Shown here: positions 3,780-50,580 of the stretch, one piece after another
Layout: every line of letters begins with the position of its first letter
Position numbering within the stretch: the first letter of the stretch is position 1
Virus record (IMG/VR): IMGVR_UViG_2585428000_000009
Location: 25,030-89,029 of that record
Strand: one strand, 5' to 3'
Source of the DNA: a virus
Lineage: Duplodnaviria > Caudoviricetes
Length of the DNA: 64,000 bases
Notes under the pieces: model-generated
The model's database searches: none
Told to the model about the DNA's origin: nothing
Seen by the model: only the letters and a program-made list of their open reading frames with translations
Program-made: the position numbers and the translations under genes

Positions 3780-4517
3780 TCAGATGCCGTCGCGTTCACG
3801 CTTTGCGCGCATCTCGCGACGAATGTCATCGATGGACTTGGCGGCGTTCGGCTTAGGGGCCGCGTTGCCGCCGGTGAGGTCACCGCCGCTACGAGGGGCA
3901 GACACCCGGTCTTGCGCCTTCTTGAGCTTTGGATTGAATTCGACTGCCGCAGAAACGATCTGCTCCACCTGGGAGGCGAAATCGTCGGCAGAAGGGTCGA
4001 GGTTCTTCAGCGCCCCGGTACCGGCGAGGTAGGGGACGAGGATGGTGGTGTCGCCGTCGCATTTGTCGGCGGCAGCGTTGAGCGCTTTCTCGATACGCAG
4101 CGAGCGCAGTTCCTGGGCGGCGGCGTCGCGTTCGGCTGCCAATTGGGCTTCGCGATCCTGCGCCTGCTTCAGCAGCTCAGCCGGGTCGGGCGGGGTGTCG
4201 TCCTTGATCAGCCCGAGTGCGCGACCGATCTGCTCGGACAGGTCCCGCTGGGCCTTCTCCGCTGCCTCTTTCGCGGCCTGTTCGGCGGCTTCTTTGCCTT
4301 TGACTCGGGCGGCGGCGGCTTCGTCGCGCAGTTTCTTGACATACTTTTCGTCGTATGTCTTCTCGACAGGCTTCTCGGGTTCCGGCTTGGGATCGGTGTC
4401 GCCTGCGGGGGTTTCGGTTTCGGTGGCCTGTACATCGCCACCGGGTTCCGGTGCCGGATCGGCGGGGGTGTCAACGGTGTCGTTGACGGTTTCCTGGACG
4501 TTGGCTTCCTCAGCCAT
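3780..4517 (-). CDS. Capsid scaffolding protein
   Basis: Acidic Pro-rich N-terminus, coiled coil (KKLRDEAAAAR), directly upstream of capsid. Confidence 0.88.
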   Translation of the reverse strand: MAEEANVQETVNDTVDTPADPAPEPGGDVQATETETPAGDTDPKPEPEKPVEKTYDEKYVKKLRDEAAAARVKGKEAAEQAAKEAAEKAQRDLSEQIGRALGLIKDDTPPDPAELLKQAQDREAQLAAERDAAAQELRSLRIEKALNAAADKCDGDTTILVPYLAGTGALKNLDPSADDFASQVEQIVSAAVEFNPKLKKAQDRVSAPRSGGDLTGGNAAPKPNAAKSIDDIRREMRAKRERDGI

Positions 4518-4620: not shown

Positions 4621-4657
4621 GTGAATTCCGCTTGGCGCGGAAGTGTCAGGTGCTCAG

Positions 4658-4730
4658 ATCTCTCGCCAGGACTCGAACCTGGACTCGAAGAACCAAACTC
4701 TTCGGTGCTGCCGGATTACACCACGAGAGA
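4658..4730 (-). tRNA. tRNA-Gln(UUG), no encoded CCA
   Basis: TCTCTCG/CGAGAGA acceptor, GTGT/GCAC D stem, GAAGA-GTTTGGT-TCTTC anticodon arm, CCAGG-TTCGAGT-CCTGG T arm. Confidence 0.92.
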
Positions 4731-5703: not shown

Positions 5704-7289
5704 CAGGCCGCCTCCTCCAACCCGCCTTCGACCGGTGCCTCACCGAAGTCGCCGGGTTCGTCCACCTCGACATCCTCGCGGGACATCTCGTCGAGAATCC
5801 GCGCGACTTCGTCATCGACCTCGGGATTGCTCCAGTTCGGGTGGTACATCCGCACCGCAGTCTCCACCGACAGCGCATGCGCCGCGCGCAGGTTCGCGAT
5901 CGCGGTCGACAGCGCGACCGGGTCTTGGTCGACACGGACGGGGAAGTCCATTTCCGGGTCGGCGGTCACCCCGTAATCGGGTCCGCCGAACACGACCCGG
6001 TCGAGGTCGAGCATGGTGCGAGCCAGCGGTTGCGCGGCGGCCTGCCAGTACAGGATCTTGCGGTTGCGGGTCTGGTTCGACTTGTCCTTGCGGGCCGATA
6101 CCTCGGTCGCGGTCATCGTCACCGCATCCGAGTCGTCGAAATCCGCAGCGGAGTAACCGCAGGCACGCAAGATCTGCTTGAGCAGCTTCTCGCAAGTTTT
6201 CGCGTGTTCTTCGACGCGGATCGCGAACTGCTGCGGCTGCACCAGACGCGCGCCGTGCTCGTCGGTCATGCCCATGCTGTCCGACGGCACAGGCGTGAAG
6301 ATCGCCTGTTCCGGATCGAAGGACGCGCCCTTGCCGGGGCCTTGGTCCTCAAGCAGTTCTTGTGCGACGAACAACCTAGCCTTCGCCAGATCGAGGTCAC
6401 GCATCCACGACGACCACGCCTCATCGAGCGAGTCGAACAGCGGCTCGACACCTTCGAAGTCGCTGCGCCCCAACGCCGACAGCTTCGGAATGTTGCGCCA
6501 CTTACGGGCTGGCCTGACGTTGGGAACGTAGGCGGCCGTCAGCCCGTCGACGCCGGTTTCGATGGAGGAGTTCTCGTCCACCAGTTCGGCAGCCCATTCG
6601 GTGGCTGCGAGGCTGTCCAACGGCATGCGCCGCCCGATCGTGCCCTCGTCGCCCAGGAACAGAGCGTGCTCGATGCTGCCAGCCTCGTGATGCTCGAGAT
6701 GGCGCCACACGCCCTGCTTGTCTTCGGCGACGATCGTCCAGAACGTCACCGCCGACAGGCGCCCGTACCGCCATTCCGGGATCGCGCAGTCGGGGCTGAC
6801 CGCGGACAACATCACCTTGTCGGTGGCTTCCTTGTCCCACCACAGCCGCAGGAACACCCCGCCCAGGGCGGCTTGGATTTCGGCGGCTTCCAAGAACGCG
6901 GCGACGCTGCCGGCGTCGTCGAGCAGTTCGTTCAACCTCTGCTGCGCGCCTTCCACGTCGCGGGCGTCGCCTTCGCTGAACAGCCAGCTCGGCGGCTGCC
7001 CGAACAGCAGGTCCGCTGATGTGGTCGCGATGTCGGCGGCGGCTGGGACGTGCAGGCGTTTGGTGTCCTGGAAGACCGGGCGCCCCCACCACAAGCGGGA
7101 CAGCATCCCCACGATGCCGCCGCGCAGCTGTGAGGCGCGTGGTGTCGGGAGCTGGTAGTTGCTGCCGCTGTAGATGGATTGCAGAGCGATGGTGTCGCCG
7201 GACCACCAGGCGCTGTAGGTGGCGAAGTCGTCGTAGGCGGTGTCGTGGGGCTTGGGCGGCCATGCGCCTGCGTACTCGGGCATCGCCAC
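5703..7289 (-). CDS. Portal protein (SPP1/A118 type)
   Basis: 528 aa; LHVP.AADIA, LGRSDF, IRVEEH, TATEV motifs. Confidence 0.93.
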   Translation of the reverse strand: MAMPEYAGAWPPKPHDTAYDDFATYSAWWSGDTIALQSIYSGSNYQLPTPRASQLRGGIVGMLSRLWWGRPVFQDTKRLHVPAAADIATTSADLLFGQPPSWLFSEGDARDVEGAQQRLNELLDDAGSVAAFLEAAEIQAALGGVFLRLWWDKEATDKVMLSAVSPDCAIPEWRYGRLSAVTFWTIVAEDKQGVWRHLEHHEAGSIEHALFLGDEGTIGRRMPLDSLAATEWAAELVDENSSIETGVDGLTAAYVPNVRPARKWRNIPKLSALGRSDFEGVEPLFDSLDEAWSSWMRDLDLAKARLFVAQELLEDQGPGKGASFDPEQAIFTPVPSDSMGMTDEHGARLVQPQQFAIRVEEHAKTCEKLLKQILRACGYSAADFDDSDAVTMTATEVSARKDKSNQTRNRKILYWQAAAQPLARTMLDLDRVVFGGPDYGVTADPEMDFPVRVDQDPVALSTAIANLRAAHALSVETAVRMYHPNWSNPEVDDEVARILDEMSREDVEVDEPGDFGEAPVEGGLEEAA

Positions 7290-11477: not shown

Positions 11478-11713
11478 GCTGCGACCGCCTCCGTGATCCG
11501 GTCCGGCGAATACCCCGCCCAATGCTCGCCACCTGCGACGACCACGGGGGCTTGGAGGTAGCCGAGGGACTTGATGTAGTCGAGCGCTTCCGCGTCCTCG
11601 GTAACGTCGACCTTGCGGTAGTCGGCTCCGAGGGAGTTCAGCTTCTTGATAGTCGCTTTGCACGGCTGACAGCCCGGACGCGAGTAGACGGTGATCTCTG
11701 GTGTCGAGGTCAA
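11444..11713 (-). CDS. NrdH-like glutaredoxin
   Basis: ITVYSRPGCQPC...LGY.QAPVV....HW.G; TTGA coupling. Confidence 0.9.
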   Translation of the reverse strand: MTSTPEITVYSRPGCQPCKATIKKLNSLGADYRKVDVTEDAEALDYIKSLGYLQAPVVVAGGEHWAGYSPDRITEAVAAWQASGQPDTA

Positions 11714-12690
11714 GGCAGGCGAATCCCCAAGTCGGGCAGCGACGGAAGCTCGATGACGGGCATCGGCGGCGGCACGAAGTCGGCGATCTCCGGAGGCAAG
11801 GCGTGCTCCACAAAATCGGGCACGAACTCCTTCACCGGAGTCGGCGTATAGGTCGGGCTCGGCGCCCACGCCGCGGCCATGTCGTCGAAGTCCGCCAGCG
11901 ACGGCAGCGGGCCGGGCGTCCATTCCGGCAACGGCAGAGTCTGTTCGACCGGTGGCAGCCCGGTCGGGGTGTGCTCGGGCAGGTTCGGGTTCGGTGACGG
12001 CATGTCCACGAGATGCTGGCCCGGCTCTAGGCCGTCGGCTTCGCCGGGCGCGTACCCGTGCCAGCCGGTCAGGTAGCCCTGCACAGCGAGCCCGAAGTGG
12101 ACGGGGTCCACCCACGGTGCGGGCGCATCGCAGACGACGTCGTATTCGTGGCACACCGAGACCGTGTTCGGCCCGAGTTCGCGTTCGCCGGGCGAGGAGA
12201 TACCGGGCACGATGCCGGGCAGCGCGTCGTAGATACCGCCCTCTGCGCGCGGGTCGCCGTAGAGGATGGTGTGGTCGGCTTGGTCCTGGATGTTGCCGGC
12301 CACTTCGGCACCGAGGGAGTGCCCGAGCACGGTCACTTCCCCGTTGGGGCATTCGGCACGGTAGGCGTCGATCTTCGCAGTCGCCGCGGCTTGACCGTCA
12401 CGGACGGACTCGTCCTTGGTGTACGGGCCGGTTGGCCAGATCGAGGACGGATAGTCGAGCGATTCGGTGCGGTAGCCGTCGCCGTAGGCGGCGAGGTGAT
12501 CACCGAGCATGGTGGGCTGGCCTGCTTGTTCGGCTGCTCGCTGGCCGGTGCCGCCGATGCCGAGAACGTATGGGCGGCAATCAGGTTCCGCTGACGCGAG
12601 CGGGGTAGCGGCGGGGAAGCCGAGCGGCCCGAGATAGACGACACCGAGCGCGGACACAGTGAGGGCGCCTGCGCGGAGACGACGGGACAT
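11710..12690 (-). CDS. Secreted cutinase / PE-PPE-like alpha/beta hydrolase
   Basis: Signal peptide, GHSLG nucleophile elbow, YGDP, C..YD.VC, catalytic His, Pro-rich tail. Confidence 0.85.
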   Translation of the reverse strand: MSRRLRAGALTVSALGVVYLGPLGFPAATPLASAEPDCRPYVLGIGGTGQRAAEQAGQPTMLGDHLAAYGDGYRTESLDYPSSIWPTGPYTKDESVRDGQAAATAKIDAYRAECPNGEVTVLGHSLGAEVAGNIQDQADHTILYGDPRAEGGIYDALPGIVPGISSPGERELGPNTVSVCHEYDVVCDAPAPWVDPVHFGLAVQGYLTGWHGYAPGEADGLEPGQHLVDMPSPNPNLPEHTPTGLPPVEQTLPLPEWTPGPLPSLADFDDMAAAWAPSPTYTPTPVKEFVPDFVEHALPPEIADFVPPPMPVIELPSLPDLGIRLP

Positions 12691-12734
12691 GAGGGGCCTC
12701 CTGGCAGGCCGGAACAAAGGGGGGGAACTCCTGG

Positions 12735-12987
12735 AGCCCGCCGCGCGCCCGGGGGTAGCGAGGCCGGGGCGCGGCGGGCTATGGTCGCGGCGCACACAAC
12801 AGGGCTGCTGCGCGACCGGACGCCACCTAGATGCCCTGCAACTCGCGTGAGATCGAGTGCGAGCGGCCCCGAGCCGAATGGGGCACGAGGGTGGTGGCGA
12901 AATTTCGCGGTAGGCGTTCTCTGGGCAGCACCGCCACTACCACTGCGTTACCTCGAATACCGAGGTCGCACTACGCAATACGCGCAG
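12735..12987 (-). ncRNA. Putative structured RNA (multi-hairpin intergenic element)
   Basis: At least six stems in about 250 nt, including a perfect 12-bp stem (12735-12746/12769-12780); no convincing ORF. Confidence 0.45.
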
Positions 12988-14193: not shown

Positions 14194-14269
14194 GGATGCT
14201 CCTGAAAAGTGTTGCCGGAACATCCATCCGGACGAGTTAAGCCTGAAGCCACAGACGACGGGCGGGTTG

Positions 14270-14344
14270 TTCGGGTGGCGAGACTCGAACTCGCAACTTC
14301 CCGCTCCCAAAGCGGGTGCTCTGACCAAATTGAACTACACCCAA
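14270..14344 (-). tRNA. tRNA-Pro(UGG)
   Basis: CCCGC-TTTGGGA-GCGGG anticodon arm, GCGAG-TTCGAGT-CTCGC T arm, TTGGGTG/CACCCGA acceptor. Confidence 0.93.
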
Positions 14345-14532
14345 AGACCCGCCGATTTGAGGAAGTCGAAGCTCTAGCCTTGGCGGGGTTGCTCCACGGA
14401 ATAGATGTGCGCACATTTCCGCTTCGCTCCGTGTACGGGGTGGCGGTCCGGTCTATTCACTCCACTGGGTACCTCCGGGCGTGCCCGGCTTCCTAACCCT
14501 GCGACCGCTCTTACCTAGCGCAAGACCCATCG
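14345..14532 (-). ncRNA. Putative structured RNA inside tRNA array
   Basis: GGTCT/AGACC-closed three-way junction, CACGGA...TCCGTG arm, CCCGCC...GGCGGG arm containing TTCGACT. Confidence 0.45.
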
Positions 14533-14605
14533 TTGCGGTGCCGCGATTCGAACGCGGGACTCCGGCATATGAAACCGGCAGGGTACCGAACTCCCCCACA
14601 CCGCA
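14533..14605 (-). tRNA. tRNA-Met(CAU), fMet-like acceptor sequence
   Basis: TGCGGTG/CACCGCA acceptor, CCGGT-TTCATAT-GCCGG, CCGCG-TTCGAAT-CGCGG. Confidence 0.9.
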
Positions 14606-14670
14606 ATGCGCACGGCGGGGAGTGCATGCCCCTGTTGCCCCGACGACTCCCTGTCGCCGGACCGCGCTCG

Positions 14671-14742
14671 CACAGGCGGAGAGAATCGAACTCCCGACAC
14701 GCGGCTTTGGAGACCGCTGCTCTACCACTGAGCTACGCCCAT
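14671..14742 (-). tRNA. tRNA-Trp(CCA)
   Basis: GCTC-AGTGGTA-GAGC D arm, GCGGT-CTCCAAA-GCCGC, GGGAG-TTCGATT-CTCTC. Confidence 0.95.
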
Positions 14743-14769
14743 TCGGTTCCGCCACGAGGCGAAACACCG

Positions 14770-14856
14770 CGGAAGACAGAGGACTCGAACCCCAGACACT
14801 TTCATGCCCGAACGCGCTAGCAACGCGGCTCGACCTCCATGGCCGATTTGTCTTCC
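14770..14856 (-). tRNA. tRNA-Ser(GCU), 8/4 architecture
   Basis: 8-bp acceptor GGAAGACA/TGTCTTCC, 6-bp D stem, TTGCTAG loop, long variable arm, 4-bp T stem, G73. Confidence 0.88.
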
Positions 14857-14901
14857 AGTGAAGAACGGCCCTGGACTCGATGAGCGGAACCGTTCATAGC
14901 G

Positions 14902-14987
14902 CGGAAAGTTGAGGAGTCGAACCCCCGGGACGCGATGCCCGCCTCCGGCTTTCGAAACCGGCTGGCCTCCACAGACCGGAACTTTCC
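14902..14987 (-). tRNA. tRNA-Ser(CGA), 8/4 architecture
   Basis: 8-bp acceptor GGAAAGTT/AACTTTCC, 5-bp D stem with 4-nt loop, TTCGAAA loop, long variable arm, 4-bp T stem, G73. Confidence 0.88.
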
Positions 14988-27984: not shown

Positions 27985-28293
27985 TCACACCGCTAACGGC
28001 AAGAAGTCGGGGCGGTCTTCGTCGTCGCGGTCAGCGAACGGTTTGCCACCCCAGATGCCGGACACCCGGAACGGGCTCACTGCGGCGAGGGCGTCGTGGA
28101 GTTCGCGGCACTGTGCACGCAGCGGGCACGAGTAGCAGATACCGGTGGCTTTGAAGTGCCGGGCCTTCTGCTGGGCTTGTGTTTCGCAGTCGATGCGCCA
28201 GTCCCACATGGACGCGCGATGCGCGCGCATCCATTCTTGGTGTTGGGGTTCGCGGCATTTGGCGTCTGCCCACGGGTCGTCGCGCCGCTTCAC
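27985..28293 (-). CDS. WhiB-family transcription factor
   Basis: W..A.C...ICYSCP...QC...GIWGG. Confidence 0.85.
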   Translation of the reverse strand: MKRRDDPWADAKCREPQHQEWMRAHRASMWDWRIDCETQAQQKARHFKATGICYSCPLRAQCRELHDALAAVSPFRVSGIWGGKPFADRDDEDRPDFLPLAV

Positions 28294-31200
28294 GACGTCA
28301 CCGTGTCGTCGTCGCTGTTGGTGACGAGGCGCAGGTGACGCGCCTTCTCCCCCAGTTCGCCCCACACGTGGACGGCGTCGCCGATGAGGGTGCGCAGCTG
28401 GTCGCGGGTGATGAGTGCGTGGGTGACGCCGTGGCCGGGGAGGTCTATGACGAGCAGCGCTTCGTCATTGTGGCGTTGGATTCCGATGCTGGTGCCGGAG
28501 CGGCTGCGGATCACTGGTGGCTCGCTTTCGTGCAGGGGGGTGATGCTGTGGCCCGTGGTGGCGCTGCCCTTGAAGCGCCGGAACGGGCGGCGGTTAGGCG
28601 GCTTTCACGTAGGTGCGGCGCTTGTACGGCTTCCGCTTCCGTTTCCGCTTGCTGCTCTTGGCTTTTTCGCCGTCGATGACGCGTGCGACGAAGTTGTCCA
28701 ACGCGCGTTCTTCCTGCCGCTTCTTCCGGTCGATCTCACGCAGGGCACGTTCATGCTGAATGCGGTCGTCGACGGTCCGCTTGGCGGTGATGGCGTTGAG
28801 TGCCTTCACGTAGTCGGTGACGGCGGTATCGAGTTGGTTCTTCGGTGCCGTCCACAGGTGGTCGCTGAAGACCTCTATGGACCGGTACATGACGGATTCG
28901 TATCCGCCGTAGCTGCTCATGCCGCGACCGCCTCGTCGACGCGCTGGGCGAGCTGGTCGAGGGTCTTGGTCTGGTGGGTGACGATGATGTCTTCCAGCCA
29001 GTGCACGGCGTCGGTGTCCGTGGCGGCGAACAGCCCTTTGGCTTCTTCGTCCCACAAGCCGAGCAGGCGGGCGGCGACGGTTTCGATGTCTTCGACCGTG
29101 CCCGTGGCGGTGTTGAGGACTTCGATGCCGTCACGCAGACTGCCGGGCTCGCGGCGGAAGACGTACCCGCCTGCGAGCCGGACTGCCCAGCCTGCGATGC
29201 AGTTGCACCACGTGGACTGGTCGTGGGTGTCGGGGTGCCGCGTGATCTGGTCGAGGACACGGGCCATGAGGGGGATGTTGTGTTCCATTGGGGGTCACCA
29301 GGTTTCGGTGTTGAAGGGTCGTCTCAATAGGGCGTCAAGCCCAAGTCGCACAGAGGTGCCAGTCAGGCCCGGTCTCTGGGATGGGGATTTCTAGCAGCTC
29401 GCAGAAGCGGGCGAGCTGATCGGCCCAATCGGGAGAGACATCGAGGGGCTTCAGCGGTTGGGCACCTGAATCACAGCTCTGCACGGATGCTTTGATCCGC
29501 ACCGACCGGGCGTCGTATTCGTAGCCGTACAGGTCGATCTCCACGCCGATGCTCTTGACCAGCTCGCGCAGCTGATCACGGTTCGCCGACCATGCCCGGT
29601 ACTCCGGTGTCGCACGAAGCTCCTGACGCAATCGGTCGGGTTCGGCGGCTGGTATGCGCCAGTCGTCCAATGCCGCAGGCGCCAGCTCCTTGGGAAAGGG
29701 CACGTCGACCCACCCAAGGCGGCCCGCAAGTACCTCCTCCCAGTTCTCGCCGTCCTGCCACCACAGCGGCATCTGGTTGTCGTCGATGTCCTCGCCGTAT
29801 CCGAGGTCGAATCCCCAGAACACGTCAGCGCTCAGGCTCATCCCCATGAGCGGTCCTCTCGTTCGAATGTTGTTGTGCGGGTATTGCATTGGTAGGGGCG
29901 GGCGGTCCGGGCCGATGTCATCTCGGACCGCCTGCCCCTCCTTCGCGGCTGCCGTCAGCGCGTGTGCGTGTGGGTCGCTGCGGTCAGTCGGGAAGGTCTG
30001 GTGTGGTTCGGTCGACGGTCGCGGTGATGTCGAGTAGGTCGCGTTCGACCTGCTTGCTGTCGTGCGCGCGGGCGTATTCCTCGACGAGCCGCCGCAACTG
30101 CTGGTATTTCTGCCAGGTCTCGCGGTGCAGCTGCTCAAGCCGTTCGTGAGGGCTCATGTCGGCCCAGGGCTCCAGCGGATCAGGCGGCATCGCGCACCTC
30201 CACCCAGCCGTGTTCGTTGCGCCAGTAGCGGTCGACTTCGCTGGTGGTGTAGATGGCGGGGTTGTCGGGGTAGTCGTCGACGACGCAGTCTTCGGCGAAC
30301 CGGATGAACGTCGCGTCGGATGCGTTTCCGCCTTGCCGGAATCGGGTACCGTCAGGCACTTGGCTGGCGTAGTCCCAGCACCTCGCGGTCACGACAGCAC
30401 CTCAACGAAGCCGTCGGGCCAGTCGGAGTCGACGACGGCCGCTGAGTAAAGGTCGCCGCGAGTTCCGCTCGGCCAGATGACCCGGAACTCGTCGCCTTCA
30501 CGGAGGAACGACACCACTCCGGCCGCCACCTGTGGGCGGATGCGCACACCCTGGGGGACGTCGGCCGCCGACTGCCAAGTGCGTGGTCGAAGCGGACCCG
30601 ACAGCACTTCCACGAAGCCCTCCGGCCAAGCCTTAGTGACTGAATCCGGGCCGGTGAGACCGTCGTACCGTTCGCCGTACCACTGCTTCAAAGCACCGAT
30701 GTCGTAGACCTGCCATCGGAAAGAACTCGGTGTCCTGGTCGTGAAGACGACGTCATCGGGAATCTGCGACACAGTCTTCCACGTGCGCGGCACAGTAACG
30801 CCAGCGATCTCGGCTTCCATGATCGGTTCGTCGCCGACGATTCGCCGAAGCTCCGTTATCAGCGTCGGGATACTGATCGGGCCACCTGGGTCGTGCTGCT
30901 CGACTTCCTCGAGCAGGCCGATGATGCTACGCACGCGCGCGGCGAGAGGCGACGTGTCCGGTGTTGTGTCTTCGACGATGGGCGCGTCCACGATGCCGTC
31001 GTCGGCGAGGTCCCAGAGTTCGGTCGTGGTGATGGTCTGTACACGTACGCGGACGATCCGCGCGTTCTCCTCGAAGTAGGTCCGCAGCCCTAACGGGGAG
31101 ATGTCGGCGGCCAGGCGCTGAATGAGGAGGCGCGCGGAGTCCGGGTTCTCCCACAGGTACGCGTGACTTCCATCTGAGAGCTTCCCGGGTACACCGCCAT

Positions 31201-50317: not shown

Positions 50318-50509
50318 TCAGGTGGTGGCGTCGGCGAGGTCGACGATGGTGGCGCCGGCGGCGTTGGTTTGGACGGACGCGATACCTTTCTTCGCGGCGT
50401 CTTTGCTGGCATAGGCTTGGCTTTGGGCGATGACTTCGCCGTTGCCCGCTTTGAGCCGCCACCGGTACTTGTTCGCGGCGTCGCTGAAGATCTCGAACTT
50501 CCCTGCCAT
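50318..50509 (-). CDS. YegP / DUF1508 family protein
   Basis: FEIF.D...YRWRLKAGNGEVIA.SQ.Y.SK..A..GI.SV..NA. Confidence 0.93.
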   Translation of the reverse strand: MAGKFEIFSDAANKYRWRLKAGNGEVIAQSQAYASKDAAKKGIASVQTNAAGATIVDLADATT

Positions 50510-50580
50510 GACCACTCCGTCTCGTTGCTGGGAAATCGCTACCTCACTACAGGGTAGAGCGAACAGAGCCCCTTCAAGGA

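Follow-up and report, generated by a model that had tools for sequence, protein, structure and literature searches.

Two adjacent serine tRNA genes of a phage tRNA cluster are likely supernumerary isoacceptors of the known 8/4 tRNA-Ser lineage (8-bp acceptor stem, 4-bp T stem), carried by a siphovirus-type phage whose host is probably Nocardia. The window, by which we mean the whole stretch of 64,000 nucleotides that was analyzed, lies in an 89,029-bp virus record with a G+C content of 64%. The fold is not new: Mukai et al. (2017) described (8/4) tRNA-Ser from bacteria as well as phages and placed it in the allo-tRNA group, and the two window genes are further members of that published kind, adding members and not a principle to what has been known since 2017. 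New here is the wide spread of the lineage among actinobacteriophages; Bxz1-type mycobacteriophages also carry it, for the most part without annotation. The main practical importance of the 8/4 shape is that standard tRNA finders often miss it.

Structure of the two serine tRNA genes

ARAGORN finds six tRNA genes in the window, all on the minus strand (Table 1), and calls the two serine genes as tRNA-Ser(gct) at 14769-14856(-) and tRNA-Ser(cga) at 14901-14987(-). All of the features on which the original prediction was based, namely an 8-bp acceptor stem, a 4-bp T stem, an extended D stem, a long variable arm and G73, can be seen in the minus-strand sequence. Ser(GCU) parses as GGAAGACA / AA / UCGGCC-AUGGA-GGUCGA / G / CCGCG-UUGCUAG-CGCGU / variable / GGGG-UUCGAGU-CCUC / UGUCUUCC / G, and Ser(CGA) as GGAAAGUU / CC / GGUCU-GUGG-AGGCC / AG / CCGGU-UUCGAAA-GCCGG / variable / GGGG-UUCGACU-CCUC / AACUUUCC / G. 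The acceptor strands (GGAAGACA/UGUCUUCC and GGAAAGUU/AACUUUCC, respectively) form eight Watson-Crick pairs in each gene and are followed by G73, with CCA encoded in neither, and the connector after the eighth pair is 2 nt long (AA in GCU, CC in CGA). Both T stems are GGGG/CCUC, 4 bp including one G.U, and close a canonical UUCGAnU loop, giving an acceptor/T coaxial helix of 8+4 = 12 bp in both tRNAs. The D stem of Ser(CGA) has 5 bp around a 4-nt loop; the 5-nt D loop of Ser(GCU) departs slightly from the tetraloop of 8/4 tRNA-Ser, and GG is present in the D loop of both. Between the anticodon and T stems lies a variable region of ~18-19 nt, with a stem of 5-6 bp under constrained folding. Ser(GCU) carries a C:U mismatch at its outer anticodon-stem pair.

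Table 1. Coordinates of the tRNA genes in the window and of the structural elements of the two serine tRNAs
Feature	Position in window	Strand	Details
tRNA-Ser(CGA)	14902..14987	-	86 nt; G1 = 14987, G73 = 14902; 8/4 fold
tRNA-Ser(CGA) acceptor stem	14987-14980 with 14910-14903	-	
tRNA-Ser(CGA) D arm	14977-14964	-	
tRNA-Ser(CGA) anticodon arm	14961-14945	-	anticodon 14954-14952
tRNA-Ser(CGA) variable region	14944-14926	-	
tRNA-Ser(CGA) T arm	14925-14911	-	
Spacer between serine tRNA genes	14857..14901	-	~44 nt
tRNA-Ser(GCU)	14770..14856	-	87 nt; G1 = 14856, G73 = 14770; 8/4 fold
tRNA-Ser(GCU) acceptor stem	14856-14849 with 14778-14771	-	
tRNA-Ser(GCU) D arm	14846-14830	-	6 bp + 5 nt
tRNA-Ser(GCU) anticodon arm	14828-14812	-	anticodon 14821-14819
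tRNA-Ser(GCU) T arm	14793-14779	-	
tRNA-Trp(CCA)	14670..14742	-	canonical 7/5; RF00005 59.6 bits
tRNA-Met(CAU)	14532..14605	-	canonical; 55.3 bits
tRNA-Pro(UGG)	14269..14344	-	canonical; last of cluster; 60.7 bits
tRNA-Gln(UUG)	~4657-4730	-	UCUCUCG acceptor strand, odd; 47.2 bits in sensitive mode

A 7/5 reading of the two genes would require a 49:65 pair of U:U in GCU or G:A in CGA, the mismatches that had been predicted, and a connector of 3 nt instead of 2. Of the two, ARAGORN gives the CGA gene an 8/4 fold and renders the GCU gene as 7/5, with t:t mismatched. Cloverleaf energies favor the 8/4 over the 7-bp reading by only ~1 kcal/mol, and unconstrained folding of the single sequences returned no cloverleaves (z-scores -2.8 and -0.9). 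A single additional pair in two sequences could arise by chance and little energy is gained, so support for the fold has to come from homologs.

Covariation of the eighth acceptor pair

Homologs were collected with the search pattern GGGGTTCGANTCCTCNNNNTTCCG, in which the T arm and the last four acceptor pairs are fixed and pairs 5-8 are free. This single fixed 3'-end pattern matches at least 121 stretches of IMG/VR viral contigs and at least 120 stretches of bacterial contigs (one genome per species), numbers that do not sit with the rarity that had been ascribed to 8/4 tRNA-Ser. Among the matches listed, 98 unique viral tRNAs divide into 73 that can form only the eighth acceptor pair, 17 that can form either pair, six that form only 49:65 and two that form neither; the corresponding figures for 124 bacterial tRNAs, again among the matches listed, are 82, 18, 23 and one. 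Position 8 is T and the D arm is standard in the 7/5-only sequences caught by the pattern; in the 8/4 sequences, the D stem is long and the connector measures 2 nt. A large subfamily on viral contigs consists of 88-92-nt 8/4 tRNA-Ser(UGA) with a very long, bulged D stem (GCAGnGGGG...CCnGCG). A MAFFT alignment (A1, n=105), in which the 5' ends of the 89-nt subfamily were shifted by three columns, was left unused for pair counts.

For the CGA/UGA type, we aligned 74 sequences (A2): the window gene, those of prophiGD54-2 and Shigella phage B2, and 71 pattern matches chosen from the 214 unique matches listed by a 5'-end rule on positions 9-12 and a length of 81-88, criteria that are independent of the columns tested. 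The eighth pair (columns 8-82) is formed in 70 of the 74 (GC 49, UA 10, AU 6, CG 4, UG 1), with 21 double-sided changes, and the rival 49:65 pair forms in 13 and fails in 61. Double-sided changes also occur in four of the five D-stem pairs and all five anticodon-stem pairs, and in slid controls the share of paired cells falls from 96% to 36-56%. The T-stem pairs say nothing about the fold, because the pattern fixes the T arm and they therefore never vary. The GCU-type alignment (A3, n=65) came from a second scan that gave 66 stretches, 61 of them unique; six with poor or misparsed ends were dropped and the remaining 55 were joined by 10 others, with about nine canonical 7/5 genes included. Here, the eighth pair forms in 58 of 65 (GC 32, AU 19, and four minor types) and 49:65 in 19, failing in 46. 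The nearest relative of the GCU gene among the matches listed, in Nocardia sp. CC227C, has G-C at the eighth pair where the window gene has A-U.

Parsimony on FastTree trees built without the tested columns gives at least 14 switches among paired states in A2 and at least 23 in A3, counts that are rough because trees on ~85-nt sequences are poorly resolved. The covariation check proposed with the original prediction has thus been run and came out in its favor, with all four Watson-Crick types at the eighth pair. At the level of comparative sequence evidence, the 8/4 fold of both window tRNAs is confirmed as real and well supported.

A covariance model built from A2 (R1) scores the window Ser(CGA) at 79.7 bits and Ser(GCU) at 40.1 bits. 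Phage tRNA-Tyr genes score 30-35 bits with this model, one of them in Gordonia phage GodonK (positions 7-77 of the fetched stretch; 1893-1969 of the other stretch), and might have non-canonical stems as well.

Relationship to tRNA-Sec and to canonical tRNA-Ser

In Rfam gathering mode, only the Pro, Trp and Met genes of the window are reported, with no RF00005 match for the serine genes. This silence is partly a filter effect, because the whole-window gathering run also missed tRNA-Gln(UUG) through its speed filter. In sensitive mode, the best family for both serine genes is tRNA-Sec (RF01852), at 33.6 bits for CGA and 30.4 bits for GCU against a gathering score of 47, and RF00005 scores lower than the Sec model and is dropped by clan competition. 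With standard and Sec models, as had been suggested, tRNA-Sec is the best family, both scores falling short of the threshold. The likeness to tRNA-Sec and allo-tRNAs claimed for the two genes does hold in the 8-bp acceptor stem, the long D stem and the choice of Rfam family. A GGAAG 5' end, which had been offered as a hallmark of tRNA-Sec, is no such thing: the canonical tRNA-Ser(UGA) of Nocardia also starts with GGAAGCG.

The genes agree closely with published 8/4 tRNA-Ser. Both have the 12-bp branch divided as 8+4, the long variable arm, G73 and serine anticodons, as well as the tRNA-Sec-like D arm with its long stem and tiny loop, the GCU pentaloop aside. Like the genes of Mukai et al. (2017), which surfaced as false positives of the Rfam tRNA-Sec model and were placed in the allo-tRNA group by means of Y20, they lie in a phage tRNA cluster and are found by a tRNA-Sec covariance model below its threshold. 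Apart from the 5-nt D loop of the GCU gene, they differ in their carriers, which here are actinobacteriophages and prophage-like loci of Nocardia; those named by Mukai et al. (2017) are alpha-proteobacterial and unknown marine phages, Proteobacteria and rumen Clostridia, and the main text of that paper does not contain "mycobacteri" and has "actinobacteri" once, for tRNA-Sec. The scaffold that had been called unusual is already published for phages.

Two other identities have to be weighed against membership in the 8/4 tRNA-Ser lineage. Bacterial tRNA-Sec has an acceptor/T helix of 13 bp (8/5), which directs it to SelB, and a UCA anticodon. That the window genes are selenocysteine tRNAs would account for the best-scoring Rfam family, and selC resembles them in its 8-bp acceptor stem, extended D stem with a loop of 4-5 nt, long variable arm, G73 and SerRS-type acceptor pairs; with a helix of 12 bp, anticodons GCU and CGA, and scores below the Rfam threshold, there is next to no chance that this is what they are, and we reject the identity. 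We also regard it as highly unlikely that they are ordinary 7/5 tRNA-Ser merely mismatched at the first T-stem pair (49:65). Canonical class II tRNA-Ser shares with them the serine anticodons, long variable arm, G73, GGA.../...UCC ends and canonical T loop, the drawing of the GCU gene by ARAGORN and the small energy difference speak for such a reading, and among the matches listed, 17 viral family members (n=98) and 18 bacterial ones (n=124) could form either pairing. The canonical genes, as seen in four serine tRNAs each of Nocardia and Cylindrospermum, differ in their 7/5 stems, in U8 and in a D stem that is short and closes a large loop. The 7-bp acceptor stem, 5-bp T stem and U8 are absent from the window genes, in which a 7/5 fold would leave a 3-nt connector with no U8-type geometry; 49:65 fails in most homologs of both alignments while the eighth pair covaries; and the true 7/5 sequences caught by the same pattern are recognizable by T at position 8 and the standard D arm.

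The phage, its tRNA cluster and its probable host

The phage origin that had been claimed for this DNA is borne out by genes for tail tube, tail terminator, P22-type coat, minor capsid, SPP1-type portal and terminase in the window, along with a RecT/YqaJ recombinase, a DNA ligase and a C5 methylase. Gordonia phages of 87 kb have portals with 48% identity to the one encoded here; a megablast search of cultured phages with 20 kb of the window gave no match. An actinobacterial host with mycolic acids is indicated by a LysB-like cutinase (11710-12795) and a WhiB protein (27985-28365). Together with these, a DUF1508 gene at 50318-50515 (-), which has 78% DNA identity to a gene ~2.5 kb from the 8/4 tRNA pair of Nocardia sp. 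CC227C (positions 6989-7199 of the fetched stretch), suggests a Nocardia-like host. The host of this siphovirus-type phage is thus a mycolic-acid actinobacterium, probably Nocardia, as judged from gene content, the portal identity and the nearest tRNA relatives, which lie in Nocardia genomes.

The spacer between the two serine genes (Table 1) compares with 3-9 nt in Nocardia sp. CC227C and Bxz1 and 88 nt in a provirus (G005). A scan for promoters and terminators around the tRNA cluster gave nothing above shuffles, and a search of sequencing runs for the locus returned no RNA run and two DNA runs with small shares. Directly 5' of tRNA-Pro, a hairpin at 14347-14387 (-) matches the Rfam abiF RNA motif at 30.9 bits (gathering score 37; E 0.002 in a 901-nt search), with no abiF-like gene seen nearby.

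Distribution in actinobacteriophages and their hosts

The nearest relatives of the CGA gene among the matches listed are in six Nocardia genomes (N. jejuensis, N. otitidiscaviarum, N. niigatensis, N. niwae and two further species), ~92% identical and with a UGA anticodon. An IMG/VR record classed as a provirus contains a sequence identical to that of N. niwae. Nocardia sp. CC227C has the same tandem arrangement, with UGA followed by GCU, and a second IMG/VR provirus has CGA followed by GCU; ARAGORN missed both genes of this provirus. An 8/4 Ser(UGA) also lies on a phage contig whose portal is 73% identical, three 8/4 serine genes (UGA, CGA and GCU) occur in Gordonia phage GodonK, and Mycobacterium phage prophiGD54-2 has an unannotated 8/4 Ser(CGA). 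The tRNA/tmRNA cluster of prophiGD54-2 also contains a GOLLD RNA (196 bits; positions 2200-2643 of the fetched stretch) that encloses an annotated "tRNA-OTHER" at 2286-2357.

In mycobacteriophage Bxz1, an 8/4 Ser(CGA) with encoded CCA (AY129337 32956-33038; 88.7 bits with R1) directly follows Ser(GCU); it is absent from the GenBank annotation and missed by ARAGORN. Genes of this type are found in 140 mycobacteriophage records, in 111 of them at 99% identity or above, and among 60 records listed, 40 have no feature at the gene, 15 have tRNA-Ser, four have tRNA-OTHER and one has a CDS. The suggestion that the pair is maintained agrees with the recurrence of tandem or neighboring 8/4 serine isoacceptors in a Nocardia genome, an IMG/VR provirus, Bxz1 and GodonK.

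Where we looked at whole host genomes, the 8/4 genes come on top of a canonical set. Nocardia sp. CC227C has 73 matches to the general tRNA model, including canonical 7/5 serine tRNAs for UGA, CGA, GCU and GGA, and its 8/4 UGA and GCU pair is extra, not being among the 73. A PHROG scan of 20 kb around this pair matched three of 15 ORFs to phage families, all without an assigned function, which leaves the locus a putative prophage; two related records are listed as proviruses in IMG/VR. Cylindrospermum sp. NIES-4074 has the same four canonical serine tRNAs elsewhere in its genome and one 8/4 Ser(UGA) within an array of 26 tRNAs in ~2.7 kb (C1:5193700-5196700). Cyanobacterial accessory tRNA arrays may be mobile. 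The Cylindrospermum array resembles the phage setting in that an 8/4 tRNA-Ser(UGA) stands in a dense array beside canonical copies elsewhere, and differs in being chromosomal and not on a phage. The 8/4 gene of both host genomes examined is therefore surplus to the canonical set and sits in a densely packed group of tRNA genes or in a locus that looks mobile. The lineage probably travels on mobile tRNA gene sets (phages, prophages and arrays), while the two hosts examined keep canonical 7/5 serine tRNAs. Its abundance in actinobacteriophages, apparently as an accessory beside a full canonical host set, sharpens the question of why phages keep this geometry.

Probable role of the two tRNAs

From what is known of related tRNAs, the window genes most likely act as ordinary serine decoders charged by the host SerRS. 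As tRNA biology and the E. coli tests of Mukai et al. suggest, RNase P, the CCA-adding enzyme, EF-Tu and the ribosome would accept both tRNAs; processing and acceptance by EF-Tu and the ribosome are to be expected because the acceptor/T helix has 12 bp, as in a normal 7/5 tRNA. CCA, encoded in neither gene, would be added after transcription. The host SerRS would charge them through the long variable arm, G73 and the acceptor pairs G1-C72, G2-C71 and A3-U70, all three of which are present in both, with the anticodon not being read. Allo-tRNAs insert serine in E. coli (Mukai et al., as summarized in the available part of PMC7609411). Once charged, the two tRNAs would read UCG and AGC/AGU, the most used serine codons of the phage. 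Crude gene calling (121 ORFs, with 86% of the genome covered) gives 474 TCG, 399 AGC and 96 AGT codons, such that the two tRNAs cover 969 of 1591 serine codons. The serine genes thus read abundant codons, in contrast to Gln(UUG) and Pro(UGG), which follow the classic compensation pattern in reading A-ending codons that are enriched in the phage relative to a host codon sample consisting of a 20-kb region, itself possibly mobile.

A role outside translation, as regulatory allo-tRNA-like molecules, decoys or decaying pseudogenes, is quite unlikely for these genes. Such a role has been proposed for some allo-tRNAs with non-serine anticodons, inactive allo-tRNAs being found near toxin-antitoxin and transposon genes (Mukai et al. 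2017), and the C:U mismatch in the GCU anticodon stem would fit it; the window genes, however, have genuine serine anticodons that match the most used serine codons of the phage, intact and covarying helices, a canonical T loop, GG in the D loop and G73, and are clustered with canonical tRNAs. The original prediction had suggested that host tRNA nucleases or modifying toxins may not recognize the scaffold. In such an anti-defense role, the 8/4 geometry (no free U8, Sec-like D arm) and changes in the anticodon loop would make the tRNAs hard for these enzymes to attack, and phage translation would continue when the host serine tRNAs are destroyed. This is compatible with ordinary decoding, and we consider it doubtful without being far-fetched. 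Phage and prophage copies do differ in scaffold from the canonical serine tRNAs of a Nocardia genome, and the anticodon loops UUCGAAA and UUGCUAG differ from CUCGAAA and CUGCUAA in Nocardia sp. CC227C, at position 32 in both and at position 38 in GCU; the reading of abundant and not rare codons fits replacement better than codon compensation. According to the available part of PMC5175351, mycobacterial VapC28/30 cleave tRNA-Ser(UGA/CGA) and VapC29/37 cleave tRNA-Trp, and that of PMC10264068 proposes that phage tRNAs evade such enzymes through anticodon-loop changes. The phage tRNAs of the latter source are likewise extra copies of nuclease-target tRNAs with loops differing from those of the host, but in what is available of it the changes lie on otherwise canonical scaffolds and not on an 8/4 geometry. 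Further against an anti-defense scaffold, the VapC cuts mapped in PMC5175351 are in the anticodon loop, with no role reported for acceptor/T geometry in the part available, and the window yielded no genes for tRNA repair. Nor can any one host nuclease account for a scaffold that is shared by cyanobacterial tRNA arrays and many phyla.

Consequences for tRNA annotation

ARAGORN finds 76 of 148 8/4-only sequences, compared with 25 of 27 7/5-only sequences. In Rfam gathering mode, none of 26 8/4 serine genes is reported as tRNA. Phage tRNA-repertoire, codon-compensation and nuclease-evasion analyses may be biased for serine, because the annotated tRNAs on which they draw often omit 8/4 genes. Cluster C1 mycobacteriophages, for instance, are said in the available part of PMC10264068 to avoid Ser(gga/tga/cga/aga) and to carry Ser(gct) instead, and in what can be seen of its supplementary table the second yes/no column is marked for GCT but apparently not for CGA. 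The Bxz1-type 8/4 Ser(CGA) suggests that the reported C1 avoidance of Ser(CGA) partly reflects missed genes.

A broader and rather speculative proposal, to which we give a low probability, is that 8/4 tRNA-Ser is a scaffold specific to mobile elements, a good substrate for SerRS and EF-Tu that escapes host enzymes, and that misses by tRNA finders distort phage serine repertoires, the C1 avoidance of Ser(CGA) being one example. Errors in the other direction may also occur: the tRNA-Ser(GCU) of Gordonia phage GodonK (positions 4298-4384 of the fetched stretch), the only one of the 26 genes reported as tRNA-Sec in gathering mode, scores 55.1 bits, above the tRNA-Sec gathering score of 47, despite its GCU anticodon and 8/4 stems, which carries a risk of false selC calls.
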